This document shows positions 2,823-44,493 of a stretch of DNA of 56,363 nt, piece by piece. The stretch comes from an uncultured bacterium (GTDB taxonomy: Bacteria > CSSED10-310 > CAZUFC01): assembly GCA_964619725.1 (NCBI GenBank), contig CAZUFC010000049.1, forward strand, positions 1 to 56,363, read 5' to 3'. A program made the translations under genes and the position numbers. The notes below the pieces were generated by a model. It ran no database searches. It was not told the origin of the DNA and saw nothing but the letters and a program-made list of their open reading frames with translations. Position 1 is the first letter of the stretch; every line of letters starts with the position of its first letter.

Positions 2823-3815
2823 GTGGCGATACGCAATGAAATCAGGGCGTTGGCCGTGAAGTATGCCTATGAACTCAAGGCTAGAGTAGAAGAGCGAGTA
2901 GCCGATATGAAATCAGATGACACGTCTCATTACCTCATCTACAAAGTTCTCGGCATTACAGATCAGGAAGGCGAATTCATAGATGTCTACTCGAAGGGCG
3001 TTGATTTCAAGTTCAACACGATACTTACTGACTACTCACCAACGACTAATGTTGATCAGATTCTTCAGCGTCGAAGTCGTGACAAATCGAACAAGTCAGT
3101 TTACCAACGTGACGAAAACGGAGAAGTAGTCTATGGGGGAAAGAAGCCTGACGTGCCGTTAAGCGATGTGTGGGAAATCCCCTTTCTAAACCCGAAGGCT
3201 AAAGAGAAAACGGGTTACCCTACGCAGAAACCCATCATGCTTCTGGAGCAAATTATTAGTCTCTCGACCGATGAGGGTGATACTGTGCTTGACCCATTCT
3301 GCGGCAGTGGTACTACACTGGTAGCTGCTCACCTAATGAAAAGATATTCAGTTGGTATTGACATATCAAAGGAAGCAGTTGATCTCACTCGTAACCGATT
3401 GGCAGAACCTGTGAAGACCGAGTCAAAGCTAGTGAAGAACGGATTAGATTCATACAAGAATGCGAACAATGATGCGCTCGCTCTTCTACGTGGTGTTCGA
3501 TATATTCCGGTTCAACGAAATAATGGAATTGATGCATTCTTGAACGAAACATATTATGGGGTACCAATTCCCGTACGTGTACAGCGCCAGGGCGAGACTG
3601 TTGCTGATGCCGCTTATGCTTTACACAGAGCTGCCAGAACGAAGAAAGCCAGGCGAATGATTTTGATTGCAACCCATGATCAACCGTTGCTGTTTCCGAC
3701 GAAGATTCCAGAGCAAGTGACCGTTATTCCCGCAGTTGTTCTTAGTATATCCAGGTTCATCAAATCCCTCAGAGATGAAGAAAGGCGTTCCGTCAAAGCC
3801 ATGCACTCGGAGTAG
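2823..3815 (+). CDS. Site-specific DNA methyltransferase (N4/N6, beta class), N-terminally truncated and fused in frame to a restriction endonuclease N-terminus; probably inactive
   Basis: SDVWEIP...GYPTQKP...VLDPFCGSGTT...GIDIS are present but there is no DPPY-type motif IV. The first 56 aa (DDTSHYLIYKVLGI...EGEFIDVY) resemble, from recall, ApaLI-like endonucleases. Confidence 0.8.
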   Translation: MAIRNEIRALAVKYAYELKARVEERVADMKSDDTSHYLIYKVLGITDQEGEFIDVYSKGVDFKFNTILTDYSPTTNVDQILQRRSRDKSNKSVYQRDENGEVVYGGKKPDVPLSDVWEIPFLNPKAKEKTGYPTQKPIMLLEQIISLSTDEGDTVLDPFCGSGTTLVAAHLMKRYSVGIDISKEAVDLTRNRLAEPVKTESKLVKNGLDSYKNANNDALALLRGVRYIPVQRNNGIDAFLNETYYGVPIPVRVQRQGETVADAAYALHRAARTKKARRMILIATHDQPLLFPTKIPEQVTVIPAVVLSISRFIKSLRDEERRSVKAMHSE

Positions 3816-8347: not shown

Positions 8348-10012
8348 ATGAAACGGAAACTTTCCAGTAATATTGTATTGTCGGTCATTATCATTTTTGT
8401 TTATGCAGGAGGTGCGTCATGGAGCGTGAGGGCAACTGACGGCGAGATTGATTCGACGTTTGTACAGCCTGATGTTCTGACGTACGGCGGAGAGCATTTT
8501 GAGGAACTTACGGGGAGTCTTTCAATCACGCGTCAGTCGAACGGTAAGATCGTCGGAGCAGGTTCTTATATACCGGGAGGGGGAGCCGGCGGTGGAGGAG
8601 ACGGAATGGATTTTGCCGTATTCCGTTTCAATCCGGAAGACGGATCGTTGGATTCCAGTTTCGGCGACGGGGACGGCATTGTGCATTTTGGAAGGAACGA
8701 CGACAGTATTGATGCAGGAAATGAGGCTTGTGAAACGATAATTTTGCAGACGGTCGGCGGAGACCCTGATTATATCCTGGTCGGCGCAAGAGGTTTTGAG
8801 TTCGACGAGCCCTGGTTTGATTATCTGGTGGCCCGGGTGACGCCTGACGGAGAGCTGGATACGAGTTTCGGGGGCGGAGACGGGATGGTTTTAATCGGTT
8901 ACGATTATTCTTCTCCCGGCGAGGACAATATCACGGACCTGGCATGGGATGAGGCAACCGGTAAGATAGCGGTCGTCGGCAATACCATGGTAGATAGTGA
9001 TAAGGCAATAGGGGTGGCGCTTTTAGACCAGGACGGGAATCTTGACCCTTCTTTCGGCGACGAAGGCACGTTGACGATCAGTCTCGATGAAGCTTATGAT
9101 ATCGCTGCTTATGCTGTAGATTTCGATTCCGATCATAACATAATATTCGGCGGTTATACCCGTCCCAATTGGGAAAATAAATTCTTACTGGTGAAGCTCG
9201 ACCAGACGGGAGCGCCGGCGCTTTCTTTCGGCGATAACGGTTTGCTGATATTGGAGGATATTGAAGGAAAAATTATGGATATTAGGTGTGACGGGACAGA
9301 CATAATAGTTTTCGGGAGCAAGGACAACAAATTTAAATTCGCCAAGTTGGATGCTGATGGAAACCTGTACGACGGTGTAGCGGCATTTCCTGAATTCGGC
9401 AATGGAGGACGGAAAAAATTTAATTTCGGAATATCCGTCGAAGCGTCTGTAATGGAGATAGATTCATCAGGGAGAATCTGGGGGGCCGGGTGCGAGACCC
9501 AGAATGGCAATTATGCAGTCGCCAGGTTACTGTCGGACGGTTCAAGGGATTTGAGTTTCGGGCCTGCCGTACCGATTGATAATGAAACGGGAGGCAAGGT
9601 CATTGTTGCAGACACCGGGGAATATTCCAACAGTAATGAAGAACATTGCGTCGGGCTGTCAGTGGACCCTGAAGGTTCTGTTGTACTCAGCGGACGAAGC
9701 GTCGGTGACGAAAGCGGATATTCGCTGGCGCGCGTGCAACAAAACGGCGTGATAGATTCATCCCTCAGTCAACCTGGAGTTGCAGCAGATGATTACGACA
9801 GTGTTCATGCTCACTTCACAGTAATGGAGACGGGCAGGATGGCTGACGGAGGCGTCATATTTGCCGGCACGCAAGATAGTACGGGCTTACAGACGGTTTT
9901 AAGGATGAATCCTGACGGTCTGTTTGACGGAAGCTTCGGGTTCGGCGTCCTGACAGGAATACATTCGAATTTGACGGGAACGACGGGATTCAATTATCTG
10001 GGTCATGCGTAA
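8348..10012 (+). CDS. Secreted delta-60 repeat (beta-propeller) protein, N-terminal part of an interrupted gene
   Basis: Signal peptide; repeated DGSLDxSFG.DG motifs; ends in TAA in the same frame as the next ORF. Confidence 0.8.
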   Translation: MKRKLSSNIVLSVIIIFVYAGGASWSVRATDGEIDSTFVQPDVLTYGGEHFEELTGSLSITRQSNGKIVGAGSYIPGGGAGGGGDGMDFAVFRFNPEDGSLDSSFGDGDGIVHFGRNDDSIDAGNEACETIILQTVGGDPDYILVGARGFEFDEPWFDYLVARVTPDGELDTSFGGGDGMVLIGYDYSSPGEDNITDLAWDEATGKIAVVGNTMVDSDKAIGVALLDQDGNLDPSFGDEGTLTISLDEAYDIAAYAVDFDSDHNIIFGGYTRPNWENKFLLVKLDQTGAPALSFGDNGLLILEDIEGKIMDIRCDGTDIIVFGSKDNKFKFAKLDADGNLYDGVAAFPEFGNGGRKKFNFGISVEASVMEIDSSGRIWGAGCETQNGNYAVARLLSDGSRDLSFGPAVPIDNETGGKVIVADTGEYSNSNEEHCVGLSVDPEGSVVLSGRSVGDESGYSLARVQQNGVIDSSLSQPGVAADDYDSVHAHFTVMETGRMADGGVIFAGTQDSTGLQTVLRMNPDGLFDGSFGFGVLTGIHSNLTGTTGFNYLGHA

Positions 10013-12193
10013 TTGAAGCTTACAATGGAATCGCAGGCATATGCAGCGGCTGTAGACAGGAACGATAAGATTCTGCTTGCGGGAATCTACACCCACCCTG
10101 TTAAATTTCCGGACGCGTGTTACATAGCGCGGTTAAACGACGACGGCTCATTGGATGAGAGTTTCAGTGAGAATGACGGCGACGGTATTGACGGAGTTAA
10201 GATAATAACTACGGCGGAACAACCGAGCTATCCGGACTGGTTCTCGGACGTGTATGCGCTTCCGGACGGCGACATACTGGCGTGCGGCGTCGCCTGTTCT
10301 CTGGACTATCCCTGTTTTTATATGACTCTGGCCCGTTTTAACGAAGACGGCTCTCTGGACGAAGCTTTTGCGGCAGTGGACGACGGCATTGAGGATATAG
10401 AAGGCGTTTACTCCCTGGCGATCGGAGAAGGTGATGACATGCCTAGAAAAATACTCGTGGACGATCAAGGACGTATACTGCTTATCGGCAGTTCAGAGAG
10501 CGCCTGGGAACAGAATACCGAGGACCTGGTTGTCGTGCGGTTTACTCCAGACGGAGAACCGGATGCGAGTTTCGGCCAGGGGGACGGTATCGCGCTATAT
10601 GAAATTTCGGGTCTGGAAATGCAGGACGGCGGCGAAGACGCTGTTTTGATGCCGGACGGCCGCATCATAATTTCGGGCTTCGCGGAGATTGACGAATTAG
10701 ACTACTACTGCATGGCAGCGCGGATAGACGATACGGGGGCGCTGGACACGACTTTCGGAGGCGGCGCGGGATATACGATTACGAGCGAGGAAGGCAAGGG
10801 GTACGGCGTCATGCTGCAGCCTGACGGAAAGATCGCGGTTGCATGCGATTTGTCTAAGGTTATGCGTTTTACTGAAGATGGGGAACTCGATCCCGACTTC
10901 GGCATAAACGGAGTGATGGATTACCAGGGCGATTATACTATGAGGGACATTAGAATCCTGCCGGATTCGAAAATCCTGGTCTCAGGAGAAGGCCATATCA
11001 TCAGGTTGCTTAATACTGACCTGGGAGAGCCGGAAATAGACATTCAACGTCCTGAAGGAGTATCCATACCGGACGGCGGCACGGACGATCTCGGAACCAT
11101 GTCCGCAGGACCGGTCAACCTTGTTTACACAGTGGATAACTCCGCAGGTTACGACAGATTGTCCGTTACAGACCTTATCGCCTCGGAATTGAACAATATC
11201 GGCGATGTGTCTTTCCATGCAGAAACGCCCTTTGTTCTCGATTGGGGTGAAACCGGCGCCTTCGATGTTTCTTTTGTGATAGAAGGTGAAGGAAGTTTCG
11301 GTTTCAATATGGAAATAGTCAACAATGACGGAGACGAAGGCGCCTACGACATCACTGTAGCCGGGGCCGTACCCACAAGCATTCCCACTCCTTCCGCCAC
11401 ACCAACCGCTGTGCCCTCATCCACACCCACCGACACGCCGACAAACACGCCGACCGATACTCCCAGCCTTACTCCAACCAGAACGCCTACATTTATTCCA
11501 ACCAGAACGCCTACCCTTAGTCCTACCGATACGCCCACTGATTTTCCAACCTCCACATCATCGCCCACCCTGACGAGTGCGCCTACTGAAACGCCGACTT
11601 ATTCTCCTTCACCGTCGCAGACCATAACATCCACATATACGCCGACAAGCGCTCCGACAAACACGCCGACCGATACTCCCAGCGCCATTCCCACTCGCAC
11701 GCCGACGAATTCACCGACGAGGACAGCCACGCTTACAGCCACGCCGACGATTTATAATACTCTTACCCCTGTTCCGTCCTATTCGCCTACCCGTATCCCG
11801 AACATCAGTCCTACGGCTACGCACGTCTGCAACACGACAGGCGTTACCCTCTGGATGCCCGCTCACGAATTTCACGAAGGCGATCCCTGTTGCTGCATTA
11901 TGACTGTATGCAACGCAGAAGGTTATACCCTGACAGGATATCCGTTATGGCTCATTCTCGACGTTTACGGCGAGTACTTCTTCGGACCTTCATTTACAGG
12001 CATCCCGGATAATTATCTGGCCCTGTATCCGCAATTTGAACCTGGAGAAACCTTCATCGAAGCCCTCGGCGAATTCGAATGGCCTGCCGGTGCCGGCAGC
12101 GCTTCCGGTATTGTCTGGTGGGCCGCTATTACCGATCAGCAGGTTACAAGCCTTTTCGGACAGTTGGACTCCTGGGAGTTCGGGTGGAATTGA
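10013..12193 (+). CDS. Delta-60 repeat protein, C-terminal part: further repeats, Ig-like domain, P/T linker and conserved C-terminal domain
   Basis: Begins at the codon right after TAA; no RBS or signal peptide; DGSLDESF repeats continue; TPT-rich linker ~11370-11820. Confidence 0.8.
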   Translation: MKLTMESQAYAAAVDRNDKILLAGIYTHPVKFPDACYIARLNDDGSLDESFSENDGDGIDGVKIITTAEQPSYPDWFSDVYALPDGDILACGVACSLDYPCFYMTLARFNEDGSLDEAFAAVDDGIEDIEGVYSLAIGEGDDMPRKILVDDQGRILLIGSSESAWEQNTEDLVVVRFTPDGEPDASFGQGDGIALYEISGLEMQDGGEDAVLMPDGRIIISGFAEIDELDYYCMAARIDDTGALDTTFGGGAGYTITSEEGKGYGVMLQPDGKIAVACDLSKVMRFTEDGELDPDFGINGVMDYQGDYTMRDIRILPDSKILVSGEGHIIRLLNTDLGEPEIDIQRPEGVSIPDGGTDDLGTMSAGPVNLVYTVDNSAGYDRLSVTDLIASELNNIGDVSFHAETPFVLDWGETGAFDVSFVIEGEGSFGFNMEIVNNDGDEGAYDITVAGAVPTSIPTPSATPTAVPSSTPTDTPTNTPTDTPSLTPTRTPTFIPTRTPTLSPTDTPTDFPTSTSSPTLTSAPTETPTYSPSPSQTITSTYTPTSAPTNTPTDTPSAIPTRTPTNSPTRTATLTATPTIYNTLTPVPSYSPTRIPNISPTATHVCNTTGVTLWMPAHEFHEGDPCCCIMTVCNAEGYTLTGYPLWLILDVYGEYFFGPSFTGIPDNYLALYPQFEPGETFIEALGEFEWPAGAGSASGIVWWAAITDQQVTSLFGQLDSWEFGWN

Positions 12194-12366
12194 CGGTGAT
12201 GGCTGGAAAAAAGCATTGAAAAAAACTCAGGCATGAAAATTGCTTGATGTTTAAGGTATGCTTTTCCGAAGTAACATGCAAACGGCGGTCTGTGGGAAAC
12301 GTATTCAGTGGTATCAGAGAATTAAAAATGGAGTAAATAATTAAAAAACGATGAAAGGCGAAGCCA

Positions 12367-15048
12367 GTGAAAAATGAGAGATCGACGTTGCCGGTTCATG
12401 CTCAACGGATCGACGAAGTATTGAGGGGATTGGATGTGGACCCTGAGAAGGGGCTTGACAGCAGGAGCGTAAAGGCCCGCCGTAGCCGGTACGGCAAGAA
12501 CCGCTTACGCCGGGTTCAACGACGTTCGACCATAAAGATAGTAATCGATCAGTTCAAGAGCATGGTGGTAATATTGTTGAGCGCTGCAGCAGTTCTGGCG
12601 GCGATATTTCAAAGATGGACGGAGACCTTGGGCGTATTGGGGGTCATAGTAATCAATACGTTCATCGGTTTCATGTCGGAATGGCGTGCGGTTCGTTCGA
12701 TGGAAGCGCTCAAACGTATGGGAAAGCGACGCACCAGGGTTCGAAGAAACGGCAAAGAGCAGAAAAAGGATGTAGAGGATTTAACGCCGGGAGATATTGT
12801 TTTATTGGAAGGGGGCGATGTCGTGCCGGCAGATTTTCGCCTGATTGAATCGAATAAGCTCAGGGTGGACGAATCTGTGCTGACGGGTGAATCGGAGCCA
12901 GTGATAAAGCAGGAGGAGGCAGTGGAGGCGGATGCTGTTCTGGCTGAGCGCAGGGACATGCTTTACCGGGGAACGACGATAGTGGAGGGCAGCGGGACTG
13001 GAGCGGCAACATCAATAGGAATGGATACTGAACTGGGGCGCATTTCGAAGATGGCTGAGGAGGCGGAATCAGAGGAGACGCCGTTGGAGCAGCGATTGAA
13101 CCGTTTAGCGGGCCGTCTGGCCTGGATTACTGTGGGAACGGCCGGCATAGTAGCTGCAGCGGGTTTATCGACGGGAAAGCCTACGATACTGATGATTGAA
13201 ACAGCCATAGCATTGGGCGTTGCAGCTATCCCGGAAGGTTTGCCTATCGTATCCACCATTGCCCTGGCGAGGGGCATGAAGATCATGGCCAAGCGTCACG
13301 CGTTGATCAATCGCCTGACAGCCGTTGAGACGCTCGGCGCGGCCGGCGTCATTTTTACGGATAAAACTGGCACGCTTACCGAAAACAGAATGACCGTGAA
13401 TCGCATTTTGGCGAATGATGACGAACTGGTGATTGAGGGAGTGCATGACGAGGAGAAGAACGGCGATTCAAAGAGTCCCGGATTATCGCCGCTTGCCCGG
13501 AGGATACTGGAAACCGGTGTTTTATGCAGCAATGCTTCCCTGAATGAAGAAGGAGACGGTCAGGGGGACCCCACTGAGTTGGCATTGTTGCGGGCAGGCC
13601 TGCGTTTCGGATTCAAGCGCGGCGAATTGCTGAAGGAAAAACCGGAAGAGCGGGAAGAAGCCTTTGATCCGGAATTAATGTTGATGGCTACGTTTCATGA
13701 TGAAAATAACGGTTGGAGGGCGGCGGTCAAAGGGGCTCCGCAGGCTGTCCTGTCAGCTTCTGAGTCCATTGCCGGCGATAATGAAGGAGAGTCCCGTAAA
13801 TTGAATGATGAGGATCGTGAAAGGATTCAGGCGCGTGCCGATGAACTGGCAAACCAGGGATTCCGCATGCTGGCGATGGCTGATAAGCAGGTCGAACGAC
13901 TGGATGCTGAGCCGTATAGTGATCTCAGGCTTCTGGGTATGGTCGCGTTGTATGATCCTCCGCGCCGTGGAGTAAATAAATCGATTGAAGCCTGCAGGCG
14001 CGCTGATATTGCCGTCATCATGGTCACCGGCGATAAACCGGAAACCGCCAGGGCTATCGGCAGCGAACTGGGGCTGATCGCTGAAAAAAATGAAGTGATG
14101 CACGGCAGCGAACTGGAGAATCCGGAGGATATGGATAATGAGCAGAAGAAAGCCGTGCTGGGCGCCCGCATATTCGCGCGAGTCAGCCCGGAGCAGAAAC
14201 TGAATCTCGTCAGCATATTTCAGAACAACGGCCAGATCGTGGGCATGACCGGAGACGGCGTAAACGACGTCCCCGCGCTGAAAAAAGCCGATATCGGCAT
14301 AGCCATGGGGCAAAGGGGTTCTGATGCCGCCAGGCAAACAGGGGATATGGTCCTTAAGGACGATGCTTTTTCCAGCATTGTCAGCGCTTGCGAGCAGGGA
14401 CGAATAATATTCAATAATATCCGTAAATCCGTTATGTTTATGCTGTGCACCAATATCGCCGAGATACTGCTGGTTACCGCCGCCTCGCTCAGCGGCCTGC
14501 CCCTGCCGTTACTGCCCCTGCAGATACTCTATCTCAACATGCTGACCGACGTCTTTCCCGCATTAGCTTTGGGGGTCGGTAAAGGAGACCCGAATATAAT
14601 GGAACAACCGCCGCGCCCCGCGGACGAACCGGTCCTGACAAAACGACGCTGGACGGAAATAGCGATATGGAGCGTAATAATAGCATGCTGCGTGCTGGGC
14701 GCATTAATTCTGGCCAAATATATCTATAAAATGCCTCAATATCAGGCTGTTACTATCTCCTTTTTAACCCTGGCGTTCGCCAAACTATGGTTTGTATTTA
14801 ATTTGCGTAATCCTGCCGGCGGCATTACGCAAAACGATGTCGTCCGCAATCCCTGGATATGGGCGGCATTGCTTTTCTGCGCCGTACTGCTGGGTCTGGC
14901 CGTTTACCTTCCCGGTCTGTCGGATATCCTCAATACCAGAGCTCCCGGTTTGAACGGATGGGGGCTGGTTCTCGGCATGAGCATCATACCGCTGGTTCTG
15001 GGTCAGATTCGGCTGATTTTTACGGCGAAAGATGAAAGGGTAAACTGA
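12367..15048 (+). CDS. Cation-transporting P-type ATPase (P2A/Ca2+-type)
   Basis: LTGES, IPEGL, DKTGTLT, KGAP, TGD and GDGVND motifs; ~10 TM segments. Confidence 0.95.
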   Translation: MKNERSTLPVHAQRIDEVLRGLDVDPEKGLDSRSVKARRSRYGKNRLRRVQRRSTIKIVIDQFKSMVVILLSAAAVLAAIFQRWTETLGVLGVIVINTFIGFMSEWRAVRSMEALKRMGKRRTRVRRNGKEQKKDVEDLTPGDIVLLEGGDVVPADFRLIESNKLRVDESVLTGESEPVIKQEEAVEADAVLAERRDMLYRGTTIVEGSGTGAATSIGMDTELGRISKMAEEAESEETPLEQRLNRLAGRLAWITVGTAGIVAAAGLSTGKPTILMIETAIALGVAAIPEGLPIVSTIALARGMKIMAKRHALINRLTAVETLGAAGVIFTDKTGTLTENRMTVNRILANDDELVIEGVHDEEKNGDSKSPGLSPLARRILETGVLCSNASLNEEGDGQGDPTELALLRAGLRFGFKRGELLKEKPEEREEAFDPELMLMATFHDENNGWRAAVKGAPQAVLSASESIAGDNEGESRKLNDEDRERIQARADELANQGFRMLAMADKQVERLDAEPYSDLRLLGMVALYDPPRRGVNKSIEACRRADIAVIMVTGDKPETARAIGSELGLIAEKNEVMHGSELENPEDMDNEQKKAVLGARIFARVSPEQKLNLVSIFQNNGQIVGMTGDGVNDVPALKKADIGIAMGQRGSDAARQTGDMVLKDDAFSSIVSACEQGRIIFNNIRKSVMFMLCTNIAEILLVTAASLSGLPLPLLPLQILYLNMLTDVFPALALGVGKGDPNIMEQPPRPADEPVLTKRRWTEIAIWSVIIACCVLGALILAKYIYKMPQYQAVTISFLTLAFAKLWFVFNLRNPAGGITQNDVVRNPWIWAALLFCAVLLGLAVYLPGLSDILNTRAPGLNGWGLVLGMSIIPLVLGQIRLIFTAKDERVN

Positions 15049-15061
15049 ATAAGACTATATA

Positions 15062-15134
15062 GCGCCTGTCCATAAACTCTATTGTCGATTCAAAATTTAA
15101 TGCTGGACAGTCACTGCGGTTTTTGGACAAAAAC
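15062..15134 (+). mobile_element. MITE-like family B, internally deleted 73-bp copy
   Basis: GCGCCTGTCCATAAAC...GGTTTTTGGACAAAAAC flanked by TATATA on both sides. Confidence 0.8.
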
Positions 15135-15218
15135 TATATAACGACAGGGAGTCGAGGGTTGGACCGATGCCTGCTCTTTCGTTTACCTCCGACGAATATG
15201 CCATTATGGATGGAGCGC

Positions 15219-15388
15219 GCCATTGATCAAAAGTGCGTCTTTTGAGGTTACAATTCGACAGAATATCTCATCATTTCGTTTCGATTTCGATCCCGACTGC
15301 GATACCGACCCCCGATACCGATACCGATTACTGAAAAAAAACTGTCCAAAAGTTTTGAAAGAAGTGTAACCACGGTTTGTTCAGTCCC
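15219..15388 (+). mobile_element. MITE-like family A, full-length
   Basis: GCCATTGATCAAAA...TTTGTTCAGTCCC; flanks TGGAGCGC / GGGAGCGC (7/8 target duplication); ~8 hexamer units. Confidence 0.85.
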
Positions 15389-15591
15389 GGGAGCGCTGAT
15401 CGTTTAATCCCAATAGTCATATCCGATTCTATAATGTACATGAGAAGGAGTATGGCGGAGCCGTCTGTTTTTTTGAAGAAATTTAACGCCGGCGATTGAA
15501 TTATGAATTTTTTATGATATTACGAAAGTGAGGGTCTCAATTTTTTTAAATTGAGTGGGTAGAGGCATTCATTTCAAAGGAGCAATAAAAC

Positions 15592-18180
15592 ATGAAAAAT
15601 TCATTTTTGGTTGCGGTGGTTTTATTGTGCATATTTCAGGGTTTTGCGGGGACTGAGGGGAAAAACTTATTAAATACGAGGATTGAATATTTTATTGAAA
15701 ATGAAGCGCTGTACGCTGCTTCAGGCGATTTTGACGGCGACGGCGACCGGGATATAGCGGCATGCGAGGGAGGCAGGATAAATATGATGTTCAATGACGG
15801 GGAGGGAAATTTTGGAGAAGAGACGGTCATATTCATTCATTCGTATGCATATGAGATAATCAGTGCGGATGTGAATATGGATCAGAAGCCAGACCTCATC
15901 ACATGTCATTATCCTTCATGGCCGGGAATGACTGAGCGGGTGATTTCGGTATTGATGGGCAAGGGTGACGGGACGTTTGAGGATTCTGTAACCTATGAAG
16001 CGGAAGATAACCCCTATGATGCGACAAGTGCGGATTTCAACGGAGACGGCATGCCTGATCTGTGTGTAACGAACATAGACGGGGATTCTTTTTCTTTTTT
16101 TGCGAACAAGGGTGACGGCACGTTCGATACGCCGGTGCATTATCCTCTGGGAGACGGGCCGACCGTTATAGAGCACGGCGATTTTGACGGTGACGGAGCG
16201 ATTGACGTCGTTATATCGATAAGATTTTCCAACATGTTCATCGTCATGTTCAACGACGGCGCCGGCAATTTCAATCATACGGATTACTACGGCATGGACA
16301 CCCGGCCGGACGGGATAGCCGTAGCTGATTACGATCTTGACGGTCATCTTGACGTAGCAGTCGCGGGTTGGAGCAACGAGCGTTGTTTGGTTTATTTGAA
16401 CGACGGCTCCGGTTCTTTTGGCGAACCGGATTACTATTCTGCGGGAGACTGGTCAATGAGAATCGTGAGCGCTGACTTTGACGCTGACGGATATCCTGAC
16501 CTGGCGATAGCTAATTGTGAAAGCAACGATATTTCCTTGCTGATAAACGAACAGAACGGTTCTTTCGCTCAAACCGTAAGTTATATCGGCGGGGCTTCGC
16601 CCAAAGATATTCTGGCTGACGATTTCAACGGCGATGAAAAGCCCGATCTGGCGGTCGTCAATGATTTCTCCGGCACGGTTTCGGTGTACCTGAATCAGGG
16701 CGATGGGACTTTCCCCGAGCCGAAATCGTTATTCGCTCCACAAGCGCAGGATGTTGAAGCCGCGGACTTCGACCTGGACGGCATTGAGGACCTGGCCATC
16801 CTCAGCGGCCCTCACGATCAGATAACGATCCATTTCGGCTCCGGCGACTTCAGCTTCGGTCCTCCATTCTATTATGCCTCAAGTAATTATCCGAGCTTCA
16901 TGAAAATTGCGGATTTCAACCGGGATGATTATCCCGATATGGCTATGGTCAACATTTACATCGACAGCGTCACAATATACTTCAATGCGGGGGATGGAAC
17001 TTTTGAACCATATGATATGTATTACATCGGTCCGGAAACTCCGCAACTCGAACCGGCGGATTATAATAATGACGGTTTCCCGGATTTCGCATCGGTCTCG
17101 CATGCTGACGACGAACTGGTCGTTTTTCTGAACAAAACCGACGGGACTTTCGCCGAGAGAGAAAGACAGTTGGTGTATACCAGTCCGAGGACGCTGGCAT
17201 GTGGCGATTTTGACGGCAATGGGGTCATTGATTTAGCGTTGTCGCACACGGGACACGATATGCTGACGATTTACCGCAATGACGGTTCGGGCAGCTTCAC
17301 CTATGTCGGAGAAACCTTTGTCGATGTAACCGTTACGGATGTCGTCTCTGAGGATTTCAATGAAGACGGTCTTGATGATATTGCCGCGGGTCGTTCCACC
17401 GGCTTCTCAATGACGGGAGAAGCGTCGGTCATGATAAGTTCGGGTGATTTCACATTTTCCTCACTCGGGTGTTATACCGTCTCTCAGGTTCCTACCGAAC
17501 TGCTTGCCCGCGACCTCAACGACGACGGACACATCGACCTGATTACAGGTTCATACGCCAACGATTGCATCTCAGTTCTGTTGAATGACGGAACAGGAAT
17601 ATTTCAGGATTTCCACTTCGGCTACGGCACGCACTGGGACCCCTCTGGCCTGGCCGCAGCCGACTTCGATCGCGACGGTGATCTCGATATAGCCGCCTCT
17701 GCCTATGATGAAGGCGATAAAGTCCTGCTCTTCGAAAATAATACTTACTATCAGGAAACCGTTCCAACGCCGACGCCGAATCCCGATGTAACCGTCACGC
17801 CTACCATCGAACTGGGAGTCAGTCTCGAAATGCCCCAGTTGGCCTACTTCCCCGGCGATACTTTCTGGCTGCTCGCAGCATGTCATAATCACATGGGAGA
17901 GATTCTATACGATCTTAATCTCTTCGTCGCCCTCGATATCGGCGTCAGCGAATACTGGTTCTATCCCTCCTGGATAAAATATCCGCCCCACCTGGATGCC
18001 TGGAACCTCGACCTCATCCCCACTACGCTTCATCACATGATCGTCGATCCCTTCGAATGGCCCGAAGGAGCCGGAGACCTGGAAGACGTTGCTTTCTGGG
18101 CGCTGTTGACCGATCAGAGTATGACTTCGGTCGTGGGTGAGATGGATATGCTTACGTTTTCCTATTATGAATGTCGTTAA
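15592..18180 (+). CDS. Secreted FG-GAP/VCBS repeat protein with conserved C-terminal domain
   Basis: AAGGAG RBS; signal peptide; many DFxGDGxxDL repeats; PTPTP linker; C-terminal domain shared with the 10013 and 20039 ORFs. Confidence 0.88.
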   Translation: MKNSFLVAVVLLCIFQGFAGTEGKNLLNTRIEYFIENEALYAASGDFDGDGDRDIAACEGGRINMMFNDGEGNFGEETVIFIHSYAYEIISADVNMDQKPDLITCHYPSWPGMTERVISVLMGKGDGTFEDSVTYEAEDNPYDATSADFNGDGMPDLCVTNIDGDSFSFFANKGDGTFDTPVHYPLGDGPTVIEHGDFDGDGAIDVVISIRFSNMFIVMFNDGAGNFNHTDYYGMDTRPDGIAVADYDLDGHLDVAVAGWSNERCLVYLNDGSGSFGEPDYYSAGDWSMRIVSADFDADGYPDLAIANCESNDISLLINEQNGSFAQTVSYIGGASPKDILADDFNGDEKPDLAVVNDFSGTVSVYLNQGDGTFPEPKSLFAPQAQDVEAADFDLDGIEDLAILSGPHDQITIHFGSGDFSFGPPFYYASSNYPSFMKIADFNRDDYPDMAMVNIYIDSVTIYFNAGDGTFEPYDMYYIGPETPQLEPADYNNDGFPDFASVSHADDELVVFLNKTDGTFAERERQLVYTSPRTLACGDFDGNGVIDLALSHTGHDMLTIYRNDGSGSFTYVGETFVDVTVTDVVSEDFNEDGLDDIAAGRSTGFSMTGEASVMISSGDFTFSSLGCYTVSQVPTELLARDLNDDGHIDLITGSYANDCISVLLNDGTGIFQDFHFGYGTHWDPSGLAAADFDRDGDLDIAASAYDEGDKVLLFENNTYYQETVPTPTPNPDVTVTPTIELGVSLEMPQLAYFPGDTFWLLAACHNHMGEILYDLNLFVALDIGVSEYWFYPSWIKYPPHLDAWNLDLIPTTLHHMIVDPFEWPEGAGDLEDVAFWALLTDQSMTSVVGEMDMLTFSYYECR

Positions 18181-18303
18181 TGAATGAGGTTTTAATCAAT
18201 ATCCTGAAAGCTTGACATTTAGAAAAAAATACTTATTTAAATTGTGGAGGTTGAGTCAGAATCAGGATTTTTGTGCGAATCGACGACAGAAGGGAACGTA
18301 GGA

Positions 18304-19836
18304 ATGAAGCGAGTTAATGTTTTAGCGGTTTTGAGTTTTTGTTTGGGTTTGATCTGTGCGGAGGATTACGTGCGGGCCGGCAGCGGATTTGGAGACGGAG
18401 CGGACGGACCGTTGACGATTTCGGCTGCGGGTTCTGTCGTAAATGATTACACTTATTTGACAGGGAATGAGAACGCGGGCGATGATGTCATTACCGTCGC
18501 TGATGCTTCTGCTTTTTCTGCCGGGGACGAGATAATGATCATTCAGGTGCAGGACGGAGCGGGCACAGGAGTTGCCGGACAATATGAATTTGCAGACATT
18601 GAGGAGGTAACGGGCAATGATATTGTTCTGGAAACGGCTTTGACGAATGATTACGGTTCGGGAACATTCGATGCATCAGCATCGTCAGCGGCCCAGGCGA
18701 TACGGGTACCGAATTATACGACCGTTAATGTTCTTTCCGGGGGATCGATGACCTGTTCCGGCTGGAACGGGCGAACCGGCGGCGTTGTCGTATTTCGGGC
18801 AATGAGCTCTTTGACTTTTTCAGGCGATGCGACGATTGATGTTACAGGCAAGGGTTACCGCGGCGGAGAGATGAATTATGTGCATTTAAGTATCGGCCGG
18901 CAGGGTGAATCATACGAAGGGACCGGCGAAAAGAGCTCATCGAATAACAACGGCGGCGGAGGCGGCGGATACGGAATCAGCAACATGGAACAAAGCGGCG
19001 CGGGGGGCGGTTATGGAACCGTTGGAACATCACAGCCTTGCGGCGGATGGTGCTGCAGTCTGGGTCAGCCCACAGCCGTAGGCGGTGAAGCTTACGGCGA
19101 CGGTTTTCTTGCCTTGCTTTTTTTCGGTTCGGGAGGAGGCGCGGGCAGCCTGGATGAAGAGGGCGAAGGAGCCGGCGGCTCTGGGGGCGCCGGCGGCGGC
19201 ATTATATACGTCGCAGCCCCGGTAGTTTCCGGGGGAACATTTTCCGCTGCAGGGCAGGACGGAACTCCAGCCTTGGACCCTCCGCCGGGCTCGAATGAAG
19301 CCATGTCGGGCGGCGGCGGAGCCGGCGGCTCGGTATACGTCTTGTCGATGAATCAAGGCGCAGCCATAAACATATCAGGCGGCGCTGGAGGCGGTTACTG
19401 CCCGGGAGCATGCTATACCGCAGGCGACGGAGACGGCGGGCAAGGCCGTTATCTGACGTCTCAACCACCGACTCAAACGCCCACTGCTTCACCGACGGTC
19501 TCGCCGACTTACACGCCCACCTCATCGCATACCCGTTCACCGACTCAAACGCCCACCTTAACGCTAACATCCTCACCGACTCGAACTCCTACCGGAGTTC
19601 CCACCGATTCACCGACCTTTTCCCCGACTTTAACTCAAACATTTTCTCCCACATCGGTACCGACATCCTTGCCGACTCATACAATAACTCCAACACTCAC
19701 GGTCTCTCCGAATCACTCCACCCCCACGAATTCGCCTTCGCCAACCCAGGCCGTCATTCCCGCCGCCGGGTTTCCGGCCCTTTCTCTTATGATTTTTTTC
19801 ACTACCCTTTGCATAATATTCGGTCGACAACGTTGA
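18304..19836 (+). CDS. Secreted Gly-rich adhesin-like protein with P/T/S linker and IPTL-CTERM-like tail
   Basis: Likely start MKRVNVL at 18304 (ORF open from 18244); signal peptide; GGGGG-rich domain; ends VIPAAGFPALSLMIFFTTLCIIFGRQR. Confidence 0.8.
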   Translation: MKRVNVLAVLSFCLGLICAEDYVRAGSGFGDGADGPLTISAAGSVVNDYTYLTGNENAGDDVITVADASAFSAGDEIMIIQVQDGAGTGVAGQYEFADIEEVTGNDIVLETALTNDYGSGTFDASASSAAQAIRVPNYTTVNVLSGGSMTCSGWNGRTGGVVVFRAMSSLTFSGDATIDVTGKGYRGGEMNYVHLSIGRQGESYEGTGEKSSSNNNGGGGGGYGISNMEQSGAGGGYGTVGTSQPCGGWCCSLGQPTAVGGEAYGDGFLALLFFGSGGGAGSLDEEGEGAGGSGGAGGGIIYVAAPVVSGGTFSAAGQDGTPALDPPPGSNEAMSGGGGAGGSVYVLSMNQGAAINISGGAGGGYCPGACYTAGDGDGGQGRYLTSQPPTQTPTASPTVSPTYTPTSSHTRSPTQTPTLTLTSSPTRTPTGVPTDSPTFSPTLTQTFSPTSVPTSLPTHTITPTLTVSPNHSTPTNSPSPTQAVIPAAGFPALSLMIFFTTLCIIFGRQR

Positions 19837-19840
19837 ACCG

Positions 19841-19915
19841 GTCTCTGTCCATAAACGGTGAGTTTTCCCTAATGAGCGTAGGCCTGTCCTTTTACTCAGT
19901 CAACGTATAAGCAAT
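19841..19915 (-). mobile_element. MITE-like family B, diverged partial B2 module
   Basis: GTCTCTGTCCATAAACGGTGAGTTTTCCCTAAT...CTCAGTCAACGTATAAGCAAT matches the reverse complement of ~49645-49719. Confidence 0.7.
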
Positions 19916-19970
19916 CCGCACACGACATATCGTGGTGAACGGAAACCGACAATGTTTTCTTAAATACATA

Positions 19971-20006
19971 GAGGACTGAAAAATAAATTTCGTTTTTTCA
20001 GCCCTC
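19971..20006. terminator. Possible terminator hairpin between convergent genes
   Basis: GAGGACTGAAAAA...TTTTTCAGCCCTC imperfect stem. Confidence 0.45.
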
Positions 20007-20038
20007 AGTAAAAAGTCAAAAACAAATAATTTAGAAAC

Positions 20039-21118
20039 CTAGTCTGCCCAACTGAATTCCCATGAGTCGATATTGCCGATGACAGTTGTTACGGGTTGGT
20101 TCGTCAAGGCGGCGTACCAGGCTACATTGGAAGCGGCGCCGGCTCCGTACGGCCAGGTAAAAGACGAGAGTACTTGTATTTCAGTTTCGCCCGGTCCGAA
20201 AGATATTGCATAATTATCATGGTAATTGTTGAAGGACGGTGCGAAGTAATATTCGCCGAATACATCAAGAATTACAAACAGAGGATTATTTGTGAGGGAT
20301 TGGCCGCTTGAATTGTCGACGGTAACCAGACATAAACATTCATCGCCGGGATAGAACATATGGGACGGCATCCATAGACTGACGTCAACCGAACCAGTGT
20401 TTGAAGCAAATTCAAGAACAGTTTCTCCGTAATTATCCCACAGGCTGCTGGTTTCATCAGCAAAGAAGGCGAAGATGGAGCCGCCTTCGGCGTTAATGGT
20501 TATAGAGCTGTTATTGGGTACCGAAGTCATAACTATTGTGCCGTCCGGTTCAGGATAATAGAGAAACGTTCCGCTGTAAGCCTGATCGTTACCCTGATAG
20601 GCTGTACCTGTGGAGGAAACCGTATAGGTTCCGCTGCCGGAACTCAGCGTGATGTACGCTCCCTCCGAACGATCGACTGCATGCGTATCAGCATAAATAT
20701 CGAAACTTTCCGGACTATATCCGGATTTCTCAAAAGCAAGAGTAGTGTGACCTGAATTATCCCATGTGCTGCCCATTTCATCAGCAAAAAATGCATAAAG
20801 CGAACCGCCCTCAGCATATATTTCAATCGAACCATTGTTCGGTACAGACGTCAAAACAATTGTCCCATCGGGCTCCGGATAATACAGAAATGTTGCGCTG
20901 TATTCCTGTCCGCCACCCTGATACGCAGTTCCTGATGAAGTTACGGTGTAAATTCCTTCACCGGCTGCTAAATTTATTGCTTTGCCGTCTGATCTGTTCA
21001 CCACGTGCTCGTCTGCTCTGACGGTGAAGCTTTGAGAAGCATAAGCGTCCAAAGCGCCGATCATTAAAATGCATGCGAAAATTACTGAAATTTTCGATAA
21101 TCCCTTAATTAACGTCAT
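20039..21118 (-). CDS. Secreted protein with two tandem ~105-aa domains and the conserved C-terminal domain
   Basis: GGAGG RBS; signal peptide (AYA); GTAYQG...TFLYYPEPDGTIV.TSVPNN...AFFADE...WDN occurs twice. Confidence 0.85.
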   Translation of the reverse strand: MTLIKGLSKISVIFACILMIGALDAYASQSFTVRADEHVVNRSDGKAINLAAGEGIYTVTSSGTAYQGGGQEYSATFLYYPEPDGTIVLTSVPNNGSIEIYAEGGSLYAFFADEMGSTWDNSGHTTLAFEKSGYSPESFDIYADTHAVDRSEGAYITLSSGSGTYTVSSTGTAYQGNDQAYSGTFLYYPEPDGTIVMTSVPNNSSITINAEGGSIFAFFADETSSLWDNYGETVLEFASNTGSVDVSLWMPSHMFYPGDECLCLVTVDNSSGQSLTNNPLFVILDVFGEYYFAPSFNNYHDNYAISFGPGETEIQVLSSFTWPYGAGAASNVAWYAALTNQPVTTVIGNIDSWEFSWAD

Positions 21119-21577: not shown

Positions 21578-23527
21578 TTAATCTTTCAACCCGTATTTTT
21601 GCACTCTCGTTCGCGTTTCTTTTTCGCTCACACCCAGAAGGCGTGAAGCTTGTCGCACATTGCCCCCGGTTTGTTTTAACGCAGAGATAATACGTTTCCG
21701 TTCCAGGGTCTGGACTTCCTCTTTCAGTGAATAGCATTCCGTAAAATGAAAAACTTCGTCTGTCGGCAGGGAAGGTTTTGAAATTTTTCCGCCGACGGCG
21801 TCGAAAGCATCCATAACGTCTTTTGCAGCTACGAAAGAAGCTTTGCGAAGTCCGGCGAAACTGACTGCCACGCACAGCGTTTGTTCCAGTTCCCTGATGT
21901 TTCCGTCCCATTTTTTCTGCTGCAGCAGCTCTAATGCATCATTTTGGATATGATTTATCCCGTATGCGCTGCCGAAATTTTCGGTGAAGTTCCGGCCGAG
22001 TTTTGGAATGTCTTCGTGCCGCTCTTCCAAAGTGGGAATTTCCAGGCAGAAGCCTTTCAAGCGGTAGAACAGTTCTCTGCTTATAGGAGCATCATTGCTT
22101 TTCAGTTCTGCCAGCCTTTTTCCGGATGCTGAAATAACACGTGCGTTGAAAGGAAGCCGGTGGTTTTCGCCGCCGACCCGCTGGAAACTGCGTTCCTGGA
22201 GAACCCGCAACAGTTTACCCTGAAATTCCGGCTTCAGCTTATCGATTTCATCCAGGAACAGGGTTCCGTCCTGCGACAGCTCGAATATCCCTTGACGTTC
22301 AGCAACTCCGGTAGCGACGTTCTTTTCAATGCCGAACCAGTGAGAATCGATCAGGTCGTCTGTCCCGAGAGCGCAATTCCAGGCGATGAATTCGCCTGTT
22401 CGTCCTAAGTTGTTTCGGGAGGTATTGTGTATTTCACGGGCGACCAACTCTTTTCCCGTACCAGTATCGCCGATGATCATCACCGGGGTGATGTTGCGGT
22501 CTTTGCCTGCCGCCACGATGCGATGACGCAGGGCTCTCATCTCAGAACTGTCGCCGATAATGATCCTGGAAGAGGCGCCCGCAGCAGACAAAGAATTTCT
22601 GACGGTCAATTCATTTAGTTGAAGGATTAAATTGATCTGAGCGACTATGCTCTGGTAAAGCTCCGCAACTATCCGGTTTCTTCGATAAACCAAGGAACCT
22701 GACGGCGCTTCCAGATACAGATACCCCTGCTCTCGCTCGAACGCCGGCAACGTTTTCAAACTCATAATTAACCCCGATTTTCGCGTTCCGGCGCTCCCGT
22801 AATGAAAGAGCAAAGGCCCTTCGGCTTCACCAGTTTTCTTTTTCAGGCCTGATGGAATAGTTATTTTTTCCGCATATTTATAACCATAATGGAAAATATG
22901 GTCTTCTGGCGTAACCTGCGTGACGATTTCAGGGTTCAGATACAAAAATCCCCGGCCAGAATTCGGATGCATGAATCGGCAGAGTTGTCGAGCCAGAAAG
23001 GGAAAAGCCGCCTGCAAGGGATTCAGCAACCCGGATGAGAAAAGTTCATGCTGGAGGAAATTTAATTGCTCCGTGTCATCATGATCGCTATGCAGGATTG
23101 AGGGTCTCAAGGTTCTGAGTCCATCCGGCATGATTCCCTGTTCTGCTTTTCCTTTTTCGTAATCTTCTACGGTCAGCTCATCCGCACTTTTTTCACGAAT
23201 CCGCAGAGAAAGCGGTTTAAAATATAAAAAAGCCGGCGTGTCAGGACCCAGAAAAAAAGTCGAGTCCAGTCCTATCCTGGTTTCTTTATAGGGTTCCAGC
23301 GCCCGGCAGACATCCGTTTCCAAAAATGTGCCGTTCGTGCTGTTGAGATCGGTCAATGATATCGAATCGCCCGCTCCGTTTATCCTCAATCGGGCGTGTT
23401 TGGAACTGACCGTAAACCAGGGAATGGAGATATCGCATGAACCATCTCGACCGATTATTATCATATCCTTCCTTAAAGGAATAACCATCGCTTCATTAAA
23501 GGGAGTTTTGACTATCAAGCGTATCAT
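21578..23527 (-). CDS. FHA-domain sigma54-dependent transcriptional activator
   Basis: FHA (IGR...VSSKHA...DLNSTNGTF); Walker A GDTGTGKE; Walker B FLDEI; WDGNIREL; Fis-type HTH. Likely start MIRLIVK at 23527 (ORF open from 23602). Confidence 0.9.
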   Translation of the reverse strand: MIRLIVKTPFNEAMVIPLRKDMIIIGRDGSCDISIPWFTVSSKHARLRINGAGDSISLTDLNSTNGTFLETDVCRALEPYKETRIGLDSTFFLGPDTPAFLYFKPLSLRIREKSADELTVEDYEKGKAEQGIMPDGLRTLRPSILHSDHDDTEQLNFLQHELFSSGLLNPLQAAFPFLARQLCRFMHPNSGRGFLYLNPEIVTQVTPEDHIFHYGYKYAEKITIPSGLKKKTGEAEGPLLFHYGSAGTRKSGLIMSLKTLPAFEREQGYLYLEAPSGSLVYRRNRIVAELYQSIVAQINLILQLNELTVRNSLSAAGASSRIIIGDSSEMRALRHRIVAAGKDRNITPVMIIGDTGTGKELVAREIHNTSRNNLGRTGEFIAWNCALGTDDLIDSHWFGIEKNVATGVAERQGIFELSQDGTLFLDEIDKLKPEFQGKLLRVLQERSFQRVGGENHRLPFNARVISASGKRLAELKSNDAPISRELFYRLKGFCLEIPTLEERHEDIPKLGRNFTENFGSAYGINHIQNDALELLQQKKWDGNIRELEQTLCVAVSFAGLRKASFVAAKDVMDAFDAVGGKISKPSLPTDEVFHFTECYSLKEEVQTLERKRIISALKQTGGNVRQASRLLGVSEKETRTRVQKYGLKD

Positions 23528-23613
23528 GAAGGCAGCCTCGCTTTCAAAAGCTACAAGGATAAATACTTCACTCAGTCTAAATGCAACAGACCTGTTTTTC
23601 AACTGAAAAGTTG

Positions 23614-28535: not shown

Positions 28536-29912
28536 TTACTGGCGTTCCTTGGATGGGTCAATTCCGTATTGTTTCATTTTTTTATATAAATTACTCCGCG
28601 GGGTATCGATATTTTCTGCTGCGGCCTTAATGTTCCAGTTGTTTTCATTCAGTTTTTTCAGGATATATTCCCGTTCTGCGGCATCTTTGAATTCCTGCAG
28701 GGTAGGTTTTGCCATTAAATTGTCCGTCTCATCTTCTTTATGTTTAAAGCTGTGGGTGTCGAAGCTGATGTCTTTCGGTTTTACGGTGTTCCGGGGACTC
28801 ATTATCAAAAGTCGCTCGATGAAATTTTTCAATTCCCGGATATTTCCCGGCCAGTCGTAATCCTGCAACATTTTCACGGCATCAGGAGCGATGGTCTTAG
28901 GTTTTATCCCGTTTTCCCTTGCGAATTGATTGACGAAATGGTTGACCAGCAGCGGTATATCCTCTTTTTTTCGTCTCAGGGGAGGGCAATGGATGGGGAC
29001 GACGTTCAGGCGGAAATAGAGGTCTTCCCTGAATGTGCCTTTTGATATTTCATCGGGCAGGTTTTTATTTGTAGCGGAGATGACCCTGACGTCCGTATGC
29101 AATATTTCATTGCCGCCGACGCGCTGGAACTCTTTTTCCTGCAGAGCGCGCAGCACTTTAGCCTGAACGGAAAGGGCCATATCGCCTATTTCATCGAGAA
29201 ATATTGTTCCTTTGTCGGCAGCTTCGAATTTTCCTATTTTACGCGTACCGGCTCCGGTATAGGCGCCTTTTTCATGGCCGAACAATTCATTTTCGATAAG
29301 GTCCCCGGGTATGGCGGCGCAATTGACCTGGATAAACGGTTTGTTCTTTCTCCGGCTTAAATTGTGAATGCGTCTTGCTACCAGTTCTTTTCCTACGCCG
29401 CTTTCTCCCGTAATGAGGACCGCTGCGTTTGTTCCTGCCACTTTTTGAACGGCATCCAGGATTTCCTTGTGCGCGGGGCTCTTTCCGATCATTTTGTATT
29501 TTTCGGATATTTGAGTTCGCAGGTATTTGACTTCCTGTTGCAGTTCCTGTTCTTTGAGGGCATTTTCTATAGTTTTGAGTATTCTATCGCGCTGTGGCGG
29601 TTTTTCCAGGAAATCGTATGCGCCCAGTTTAAGGGCATCGACAGCGGTTTGTATTGTGCCGTGACCGGAAAGAACGACCACCGGCAATTCAGCCCTTCTT
29701 TTTTTGATTTTTTCCAGTACTTCCAGACCGTCCATTTCGGGCATTTTGATATCCAGCAATACTATATCCGGGGATTCCCGTGATTCCATATCGAGGGCGT
29801 CGAAGCCGTTATCGGCAGTGAGGACTTTATATCCTGCGTATTCCAATATCATTTTTATAGCGCGAAGTATGTCTTGTTCGTCATCCACAACGAGAACAGC
29901 GGGTTGACTCAT
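28536..29912 (-). CDS. Sigma54-dependent response regulator (NtrX/NtrC-like)
   Basis: Receiver (VVDDE, LLDIKMP), GESGVGKE, GAYTGA, FLDEI and Fis HTH; ATGA overlap with the kinase gene. Confidence 0.93.
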   Translation of the reverse strand: MSQPAVLVVDDEQDILRAIKMILEYAGYKVLTADNGFDALDMESRESPDIVLLDIKMPEMDGLEVLEKIKKRRAELPVVVLSGHGTIQTAVDALKLGAYDFLEKPPQRDRILKTIENALKEQELQQEVKYLRTQISEKYKMIGKSPAHKEILDAVQKVAGTNAAVLITGESGVGKELVARRIHNLSRRKNKPFIQVNCAAIPGDLIENELFGHEKGAYTGAGTRKIGKFEAADKGTIFLDEIGDMALSVQAKVLRALQEKEFQRVGGNEILHTDVRVISATNKNLPDEISKGTFREDLYFRLNVVPIHCPPLRRKKEDIPLLVNHFVNQFARENGIKPKTIAPDAVKMLQDYDWPGNIRELKNFIERLLIMSPRNTVKPKDISFDTHSFKHKEDETDNLMAKPTLQEFKDAAEREYILKKLNENNWNIKAAAENIDTPRSNLYKKMKQYGIDPSKERQ

Positions 29913-44339: not shown

Positions 44340-44493
44340 AAAGGACTCCTTTCCCAAGCCGAATATTCTGTTCCCTCACTTTATATTATTGCAAAATAAA
44401 GCATTAAAGTCCACTCTGGCGTTTTATCTCATTAAACGGCTGAATAAGTATTAGTCCGGAAGAAATCATTATTGCAGTTTTGACGACAGGAGT

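Follow-up and report, generated by a model that had tools for sequence, protein, structure and literature searches.

Several described systems place a common terminal module on otherwise diverse exported proteins. The C-terminal domains (CTDs) of the type IX secretion system (T9SS), a system of the Fibrobacterota–Chlorobiota–Bacteroidota (FCB) group, are immunoglobulin (Ig)-like beta-sandwiches that are usually 70-100 residues long and that in Bacteroidota are carried by C25 gingipain-family, PAD_porph, S8 and M28 proteins, among others. Dockerins are small calcium-binding helical modules, PPC domains behave as removable C-terminal pro-domains, and CARDB domains are usually internal or tandem. 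Here we describe a domain found in a 56,363-nucleotide stretch of DNA (hereafter, the window) that makes up contig CAZUFC010000049.1 of an uncultured bacterium (GTDB lineage CSSED10-310; CAZUFC01). From the open reading frames (ORFs) of the window and their translations, we found that three exported-protein genes, all within 8.3-21.1 kb, have homologous ends, which we refer to as tails. These tails are copies of one large unannotated domain family of ~116-122 residues. The reading that we favor, at about even chances, is that the domain works on a tether to target or retain the proteins that this lineage exports.

In a MAFFT alignment of the three tails, the other two were 32% and 54% identical to the first, and 31 columns were invariant; these include the motifs MP, PGD, N..G..L, LD, EY.F.PS, F.WP.GAG, T and G..D...F. 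The preliminary description of this DNA, made from its letters alone, had proposed alignable ends and much the same motifs on three unrelated bodies, and the alignment agrees with it. A six-frame profile scan found exactly three copies in the 56 kb window, the next match having an E-value of 0.072. Copy 1, at the end of a delta-60 repeat protein, scored 2.6e-50 against the family profile and is followed by no further residue; copy 2, at the end of an FG-GAP repeat protein, is the most divergent of the three (E 1.4e-32; 3 residues after the domain) and stands on a long branch of the tail tree (length 1.8). Coordinates of these and other features are collected in Table 1. The domain ends where the preliminary description placed its end and starts a few residues earlier than it proposed, at a junction Cys where that residue is present (position 11828 in the delta-60 gene).

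A signal peptide had been claimed for all three genes, and we found one in the FG-GAP gene and in the gene for the 359-residue tandem-repeat protein. The tail-bearing ORF of the delta-60 gene lacks one because an in-frame TAA at 10010-10012 divides this gene into two contiguous ORFs of one frame and leaves the signal peptide on the upstream ORF. TAA is an ordinary stop in the window, where it ends 10 of 25 ORFs, and the split gene could be a pseudogene, an assembly error, two genes or a case of programmed read-through. The database gene call for the tail-bearing half (P0001, 722 aa) starts with the residues MESQAY. Pro/Thr (P/T) linkers precede the domain in two of the proteins, as had been noted: a tether of ~155 residues in the delta-60 protein and one of 16 residues in the FG-GAP protein, both delimited by 20-residue windows with at least 60% Pro, Thr or Ser (P/T/S). 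No P/T tether lies ahead of tail copy 3 in the tandem-repeat protein, whose two repeats are 66% identical to one another and matched no known family; a single-sequence model of the whole protein reached a predicted local distance difference test (pLDDT) score of only 33.6.

To count the family, a profile was built from the three tails, as the preliminary description had proposed, and searched against 1.84 billion cluster-representative proteins. Matches numbered 2052 at E≤1e-3, of which 1220 reached E≤1e-10 and 81 reached E≤1e-30, so that the likeness of the tails goes far beyond chance. No family in Pfam-A or NCBIfam matched the three tails at E≤1, including the S-layer homology domain (PF00395), and profiles made from the three tails and from 23 tails found nothing below E=1.4 among the sequences in PDB. 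When 67 whole members were scanned at E≤0.5 (36 Pfam and 38 NCBIfam families found, 25 per library listed), no listed family was common to more than seven members, the matches fell in the bodies rather than in the tails, and CARDB was absent among the families listed. These results agree with the earlier statement that the motif matches none of T9SS CTDs, dockerins and SLH domains; no confident match to a characterised domain was found, the best structural resemblance being the weak one to CARDB described below. Literature on CSSED10-310, Getofiota, T9SS distribution and choice-of-anchor domains held nothing on the domain, and the motif is not searchable as text, so that the evidence for its being unpublished is weak. 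The domain family is new; the functional kind to which we assign it, a targeting or retention module, is already known.

The position of the domain was scored in 224 proteins, comprising the best 150 of the 2052 representatives and proteins from two word-index searches. The domain ended within 3 residues of the C-terminus in 207 of them and 4-10 residues from it in another 7, leaving only 10 with more than 10 residues after the domain; for the best 150 representatives, the corresponding numbers were 140, 3 and 7. A similar result was obtained for genomic DNA from a species-representative genome collection, in which 25 of 27 complete copies ended within 3 codons of the stop, one ended at 5 codons and one was N-terminal. 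Thus, placement is C-terminal, as anticipated, with internal and N-terminal copies rare. The 30 residues preceding the domain were at least 50% P/T/S in 123 of 217 proteins (median fraction 0.57, compared with 0.21 in the bodies). The domain is single in each protein and never in tandem, the sole exception being P0006 (440 aa), which has a complete C-terminal tail and two partial N-terminal segments, the second half of the domain followed by the first; this protein may be an assembly chimera or the product of a rearranged gene.

Genuine copies also occur away from the C-terminus. An FGE-sulfatase domain lies C-terminal to the tail in P0023, P0038, P0041/P0155 and P0104, and the product of L012:5482-7881 (-), from one of the related loci described below, consists of a signal peptide, the tail, a P/T linker of ~75 residues and two FGE-sulfatase domains. 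In P0142 the tail is flanked by two P/T linkers, and in P0221 it is N-terminal. Other FGE-sulfatase proteins of related loci carry CarboxypepD_reg or dockerin in the same N-terminal slot. FGE-sulfatase (SUMF1-like) is the only recurrent domain C-terminal to the tail, and its genes occur in 5 of the 19 related loci, including L001, L015, L016 and L017. We conclude that the domain is a module complete in itself and flexibly tethered, with a strong preference for the C-terminus but no obligatory need of a free one. The N-terminal and internal copies therefore favor a binding module over an export signal that must be terminal.

This mode of use is close to that of the dockerin, which is mostly a C-terminal module behind a P/T-type linker on diverse secreted enzymes that meet a common partner, cohesin. 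A real dockerin even occupies the equivalent slot of a related FGE-sulfatase protein (L017:21-629). Unlike the helical dockerin, however, the tail was modelled as all-beta, the dockerin model (PF00404) had no match to the tails, and no cohesin-like partner was found in the loci examined.

We predicted the structure of the 116-residue tail copy 3 with AlphaFold2 from a 67-row alignment. The model (pLDDT 97.6; predicted template modelling score 0.88; pLDDT ≥90 at all 116 residues) is a seven-strand Ig-like beta-sandwich with strands at residues 2-6, 17-26, 37-43, 46-49, 67-78, 86-96 and 103-114. The alternating-aromatic stretch at the end of the domain forms strand G (residues 103-114) in the core of the modelled sandwich, which argues against the earlier suggestion that this strand docks onto another protein by beta-strand addition. 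A Foldseek search of PDB gave as its best match the CARDB domain of Pyrococcus PF1109 (2kl6; E 1.8e-4; template modelling (TM) scores 0.57/0.61; root-mean-square deviation 4.1 Å; 17% identity), accompanied by a second CARDB structure, 3idu_B (E 1.0e-3; TM 0.56/0.58), and by runners-up that included RhoGDI, Der p 2 and Spo0M, all with TM scores of at most 0.61. The closest look-alike found with a protein language model was a nameless cluster at 0.91; the named clusters (CARDB, SlaA-like and NPCBM-associated) scored 0.76-0.80, which is under the reliable range.

One explanation for these resemblances is that the tail binds substrates or particles, as an adhesion domain or an Ig domain of the carbohydrate-binding module (CBM) kind, and fastens its cargo to food particles, minerals or other cells instead of the envelope of the producing cell. 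Of the solved folds, the nearest is that of a "cell adhesion related" domain (CARDB, PF07705), like the tail an extracellular Ig-like sandwich, whose strand-B signature is similar to the "PGD ... V.V.N.G" of the tail; the Foldseek list includes carbohydrate-binding sandwiches (the Wzt carbohydrate-binding domain and glycosidase domains); the weak named look-alikes point to CARDB, SlaA-like and NPCBM-associated clusters; and the tolerance of N-terminal and internal placement behind P/T linkers is CBM-like. However, the Pfam CARDB model had no match to the tails at E≤1, the identity in the structural alignments was only 17-19%, and CBM and adhesion Ig domains typically vary in position and occur in tandem, whereas the tail is single and terminal in 92% of its carriers. 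In addition, most of the identified cargo consists of peptidases or repeat proteins with no common substrate. We therefore hold this explanation to be of low probability, though not negligible.

Conservation within the family is concentrated in particular loops. Among 217 aligned tails, 28 columns were at least 85% conserved; the A-B, C-C' and E-F connections had 8 of 19 positions at this level, compared with 4 of 33 in the B-C, C'-E and F-G connections. If the strands run up and down, the A-B, C-C' and E-F loops would share one end of the sandwich with the C-terminus, and the tether would attach at the other. It is conceivable that the domain is merely a structural end-cap or spacer that has no specific target and was spread through the lineage by domain shuffling. 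Local shuffling does occur, because the N-terminal copy in locus L012 groups with the C-terminal copies of neighboring genes of the same metagenome-assembled genome (MAG) with support of 94/86. Nevertheless, without a specific interaction it would be difficult to account for the strong loop conservation and the strict positional rule, and we consider a passive cap very improbable.

The cysteines of the tail bear on where it folds. A Cys at the junction with the body, five residues ahead of the first strand, and the Cys of a VCN motif were both present in 161 of 217 tails, both absent in 40 and present singly in 16; of the window copies, tail copy 1 has both and copies 2 and 3 have neither. This co-occurrence suggests that in most members the two residues probably form a disulfide pinning the N-terminal extension onto strand B, which would point to folding outside the cytoplasm. 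Two further Cys (GDxCxC) are common in tails and are coupled less tightly.

The bodies that carry the tail range from repeat or adhesin-like proteins (beta-helix/PMP, FG-GAP, Kelch, BNR, SBBP and Temptin_C) to peptidases (S8, M1, C25, C1, M28 and trypsin-like), and further include PAD_porph, GH18, GH85, metallophosphoesterases, an exo/endonuclease-phosphatase and a transglutaminase core. One member contains the V and another the Q domain of the NCBIfam "choice-of-anchor" series, a name that denotes a body seen with different anchors. A signal-peptide-like N-terminus was found in 152 of 199 full-looking carriers (Met start and more than 60 residues before the tail), compared with 72 of 178 other ORFs taken from these loci as controls. 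By eye, most of the 47 negative carriers were gene calls that had been truncated or had signal peptides close to the threshold, and no clearly cytoplasmic carrier was seen, in keeping with the association with signal peptides that had been expected. A lipobox-like motif was present in at most 8 of the 199.

The presence of the tail at the C-terminus of many secreted peptidases, a feature shared with the PPC beta-sandwich, raises the possibility that it is a pro-domain or intramolecular chaperone that aids folding or latency during export and is then removed. A related protein (L010:10632-13469) indeed carries real PPC domains, detected by the PF04151 model at E 4.4e-27, and so this model works in a related locus. 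The same model had no match to the tail, however; most carriers are non-enzymes (beta-helix, FG-GAP, Kelch and delta-60 proteins), and the length and flexibility of the tether speak against a role as intimate chaperone or inhibitor. We give this alternative hardly any weight.

The family appears to belong to one lineage and its relatives. All source-given names among 106 word-index matches were candidate division CSSED10-310, and eight of them shared a locus-tag prefix, which bears out the mention in the preliminary description of similar tails in candidate-phylum genomes. A scan for related loci yielded 19, from four CSSED10-310 MAGs and four further MAGs, all titled loci being CSSED10-310; the scan used two peptide patterns only and so samples close relatives. 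The copies number at least seven in PWNJ01, at least six complete and one partial in CAYYMM01 and at least four in CALFER01, and the true numbers are certainly higher. Several copies per genome, as had been foreseen, are thus seen as lower bounds, with seven on three contigs of one MAG and eight under one locus-tag prefix. Not all of the 19 loci count as independent, because CAYYMM01 and CALFER01 are very close relatives, near-identical at L005/L006, L010/L011 and L013/L016 and with tail branch lengths of 0-0.15. The phylum is known from MAGs only and is listed as Candidatus Getofiota in one account (PMC11382960). Its members are Gram-negative by prediction (PMC8248873), and the related loci also hold outer-membrane efflux and lipopolysaccharide-core genes.

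Position, fold and cargo together recall the CTDs of T9SS (TIGR04183/Por_Secre_tail and TIGR04131/CHU_C), which are likewise single terminal beta-sandwiches, lineage-restricted and present in many copies per genome, on diverse Sec-exported proteases, glycosidases and adhesins. We therefore considered whether the tail is an outer-membrane secretion signal of this type, in which case a translocon would recognize the sandwich and a sortase-like peptidase would cleave at the linker junction, either to set the cargo free or to link it covalently to a glycolipid of the surface. The very strict C-terminal rule in both proteins and genomic copies, the one copy per protein, the predicted seven-strand Ig-like sandwich and a cargo that includes C25, PAD_porph, S8 and M28 proteins would all fit, and a diderm needs some route across the outer membrane for dozens of folded proteins. 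Against this, no sorting-domain model matched the three tails at E≤1, or the 67 members at E≤0.5 among the matches listed, and no T9SS CTD was among the Foldseek matches listed. The tail also differs in its motifs and is longer, and it has genuine N-terminal (L012:5482-7881) and internal (P0142; P0023, P0038, P0041/P0155 and P0104) copies. Moreover, in the ~370 kb examined, the tail-bearing C25 peptidases reached only E 0.003-0.008 on the PorU sortase model (cutoff 420 bits) and are not PorU, and the neighboring FGE-sulfatase proteins scored 33-147 bits on the PorK/GldK model, far under its 350-bit cutoff, as generic superfamily members would. Finally, the host phylum is reported to be sister to Acidobacteriota (PMC8248873) and lies outside the FCB group. 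We regard a T9SS-type signal as unlikely but, like the substrate-binding module, as a serious rival.

The strongest contextual argument for an anchoring or sorting job comes from a second kind of protein ending in this lineage, which consists of a P/T tether, a [VI]PAxG motif (or VPAE/VPLTG), a hydrophobic helix of ~20 residues and a basic cluster (RKR-like). It occurs three times in the window and elsewhere in L001:37-1581, L001:16521-17669, L004:1215-2153, L005:5351-7540 and L010:10632-13469, recurring in loci L001, L004, L005/L006 and L010/L011. This ending resembles the sorting signals of the exosortase or rhombosortase type, and it had no match to the NCBIfam sorting models at E≤0.01. In the window, one FG-GAP body ends in the tail (15592-18180) and two end in the second-type signal (49731-51362 and 51865-55299), and therefore the tail stands where, in the protein architecture, a classical anchor signal would stand. 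PEP-CTERM/exosortase and GlyGly-CTERM/rhombosortase signals occupy the same slot after a P/T tether. In contrast to these signals, which are ~25-30 residues long and include a transmembrane helix, the tail is a soluble domain of ~120 residues that ends in a beta-strand (F.W and a few residues) with no hydrophobic helix.

Taken together, these observations are consistent with the tail being a tethered targeting or retention module, the reading to which we give even chances. On this reading, otherwise unrelated proteins of CSSED10-310 and related uncultured bacteria would be exported by Sec, and the tail would fold in the periplasm once export is done. The folded tail would then bind a common partner, either an envelope component or a receptor or scaffold protein, which would carry the cargo to the cell surface or keep it there. 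The putative binding face would be formed by the conserved loops A-B (MP...PGD), C-C' (LDVxG) and E-F (WPxGAG). Such a module would do the same job as a T9SS CTD or a dockerin without belonging to either family. The preliminary description had seen in the tail an address tag for a lineage-specific machine; position, cargo and lineage fit that proposal, and the part concerning the machine found no counterpart in the loci examined. The proposal is thus supported in part, and N-terminal and internal copies of the domain, moreover, occur in the family.

Several points weigh against a targeting or retention module. No partner, receptor or processing enzyme was identified in the loci examined. When the 271 ORFs of the 19 related loci and the window were clustered by BLAST and annotated with Pfam and NCBIfam, no recurrent secretion or processing gene was found around the tails, and the neighborhoods were heterogeneous. 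The clustering gave only broad paralogue families (signal transduction; sulfatase, some with TPR, in 6 loci; FGE-sulfatase in 5 loci), and the only secretion component in the related loci was a fragment of a type II secretion system E ATPase at a contig end. The tails were not clustered by genome (16 label changes, compared with a shuffled mean of 17.7), except in one MAG, and so give no hint that they co-evolve with a receptor specific to their genome. Foldseek gave weak matches of mixed kinds (CARDB, RhoGDI, ML-domain lipid binders and the Wzt carbohydrate-binding domain), and adhesion or carbohydrate binding would be served just as well by so generic a fold as the Ig-like sandwich. The conserved face was derived from a DSSP string and an assumed up-and-down topology rather than from coordinates, the signal peptides were called by a crude hydropathy rule, and the copies per genome come from partial contigs rather than whole genomes. 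All of the evidence is computational, and the organisms are uncultured.

Table 1. Positions of the tails, their genes and tethers, second-type signals and other features in the window, and of sulfatase proteins in related loci (locus names precede the coordinates).
Feature	Position	Strand	Remarks
Delta-60 gene, upstream half	8348..10012	+	Signal peptide and delta-60/DUF5122 repeats; stops at in-frame TAA
Delta-60 gene, downstream half	10013..12193	+	Repeats, tether and tail; no signal peptide of its own
P/T/S-rich tether, ~155 aa	11360..11824	+	Joins delta-60 body to tail copy 1
Tail copy 1 (delta-60 protein)	11828..12190	+	From junction Cys (HVC) to DSWEFGWN, then TGA stop
FG-GAP repeat protein	15592..18180	+	Signal peptide; FG-GAP_3 E 1.6e-81; tail copy 2
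Short P/T tether, 16 aa	17758..17805	+	TVPTPTPNPDVTVTPT; precedes tail copy 2
Tail copy 2 (FG-GAP protein)	17809..18177	+	No Cys pair; last residues DMLTFSYYECR
Second-type signal	19756-19833	+	End of 18244-19836 protein
359-aa tandem-repeat protein	20039..21118	-	Signal peptide, two tandem ~100-aa repeats, tail copy 3
Tail copy 3 (tandem-repeat protein)	20042..20389	-	Sequence used for AlphaFold2 model; family-profile E 6.1e-50
Second-type signal	49734-49823	-	End of FG-GAP protein 49731-51362
Second-type signal	55213-55296	+	End of FG-GAP protein 51865-55299
AgmC N-terminal-like protein	18244-19836	+	Between two tail genes
Sigma-54 activator	21578-23602	-	FHA domain; adjoins tail gene
Sigma-54 activator	28536-29912	-	
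Restriction-modification-like ORF	2823-3815	+	
Glucose-6-phosphate isomerase	42702-44357	-	
PF00884 protein	L002:4410-6224		
PF00884 protein	L004:6929-8854		
PF00884 protein	L012:9253-11358		
PF00884 protein	L013:6226-8532		
PF00884 protein	L014:3-1793		
PF00884 protein	L016:6328-8532		

Other genes lie beside or near the tail genes. Sigma-54 activators were found in this position in the window (two genes), at L001:12053-13723, at L013:11872-13290 and in L016. Control of the tail genes by sigma-54 was considered and rejected: a scan for the -24/-12 consensus that required GG and GC and allowed up to 2 mismatches found no site upstream of the 29 tail ORFs and none upstream of 242 other ORFs. 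Sulfatase (PF00884) proteins are encoded within 10 kb of tail genes in six loci, those of L013 and L016 being orthologous. Some of the proteins carry TPR repeats at the C-terminus or a long N-terminal region, and they may just represent an expanded paralogue family.

Between two of the tail genes of the window is a gene for a Gly-rich protein that resembles the N-terminal domain of AgmC, a gliding-motility protein (E 7.8e-31; 107 bits compared with a 275-bit cutoff); its product has a long P/T tether in addition to the second-type signal. Farther upstream, the first ~60 residues of the model of an ApaLI-like restriction endonuclease (E 7.8e-18) and part of an N6/N4 DNA methylase (E 2.5e-31) are both matched by a single ORF, which looks like a fused or rearranged restriction-modification remnant. 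The glucose-6-phosphate isomerase of the window gave, among its best 120 matches, top matches of 62-67% identity from mixed phyla, the named relatives being Elusimicrobiota and Gammaproteobacteria, and therefore this gene has no close sequenced relative.

At the least, we conclude that a large family with a confidently predicted fold, which the copies of Pfam-A and NCBIfam used here do not cover, merits a family entry. A bolder interpretation, which we think doubtful, is that the tail is the address tag of an undescribed, non-T9SS pathway of outer-membrane export and attachment in CSSED10-310 and its relatives, one that would define most of their surface and secreted proteome and run parallel to the [VI]PAxG-helix-basic signal. 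If the targeting or retention reading is right, a single profile would pick out what this phylum, seen so far in metagenomes only, exports or carries on its surface, including its peptidases, glycosidases and adhesin-like proteins, and an outer-membrane or envelope component that is phyletically co-distributed with the domain would be the thing to look for. The domain would then offer an entry point to how a diderm outside the FCB group moves many folded proteins to its surface.

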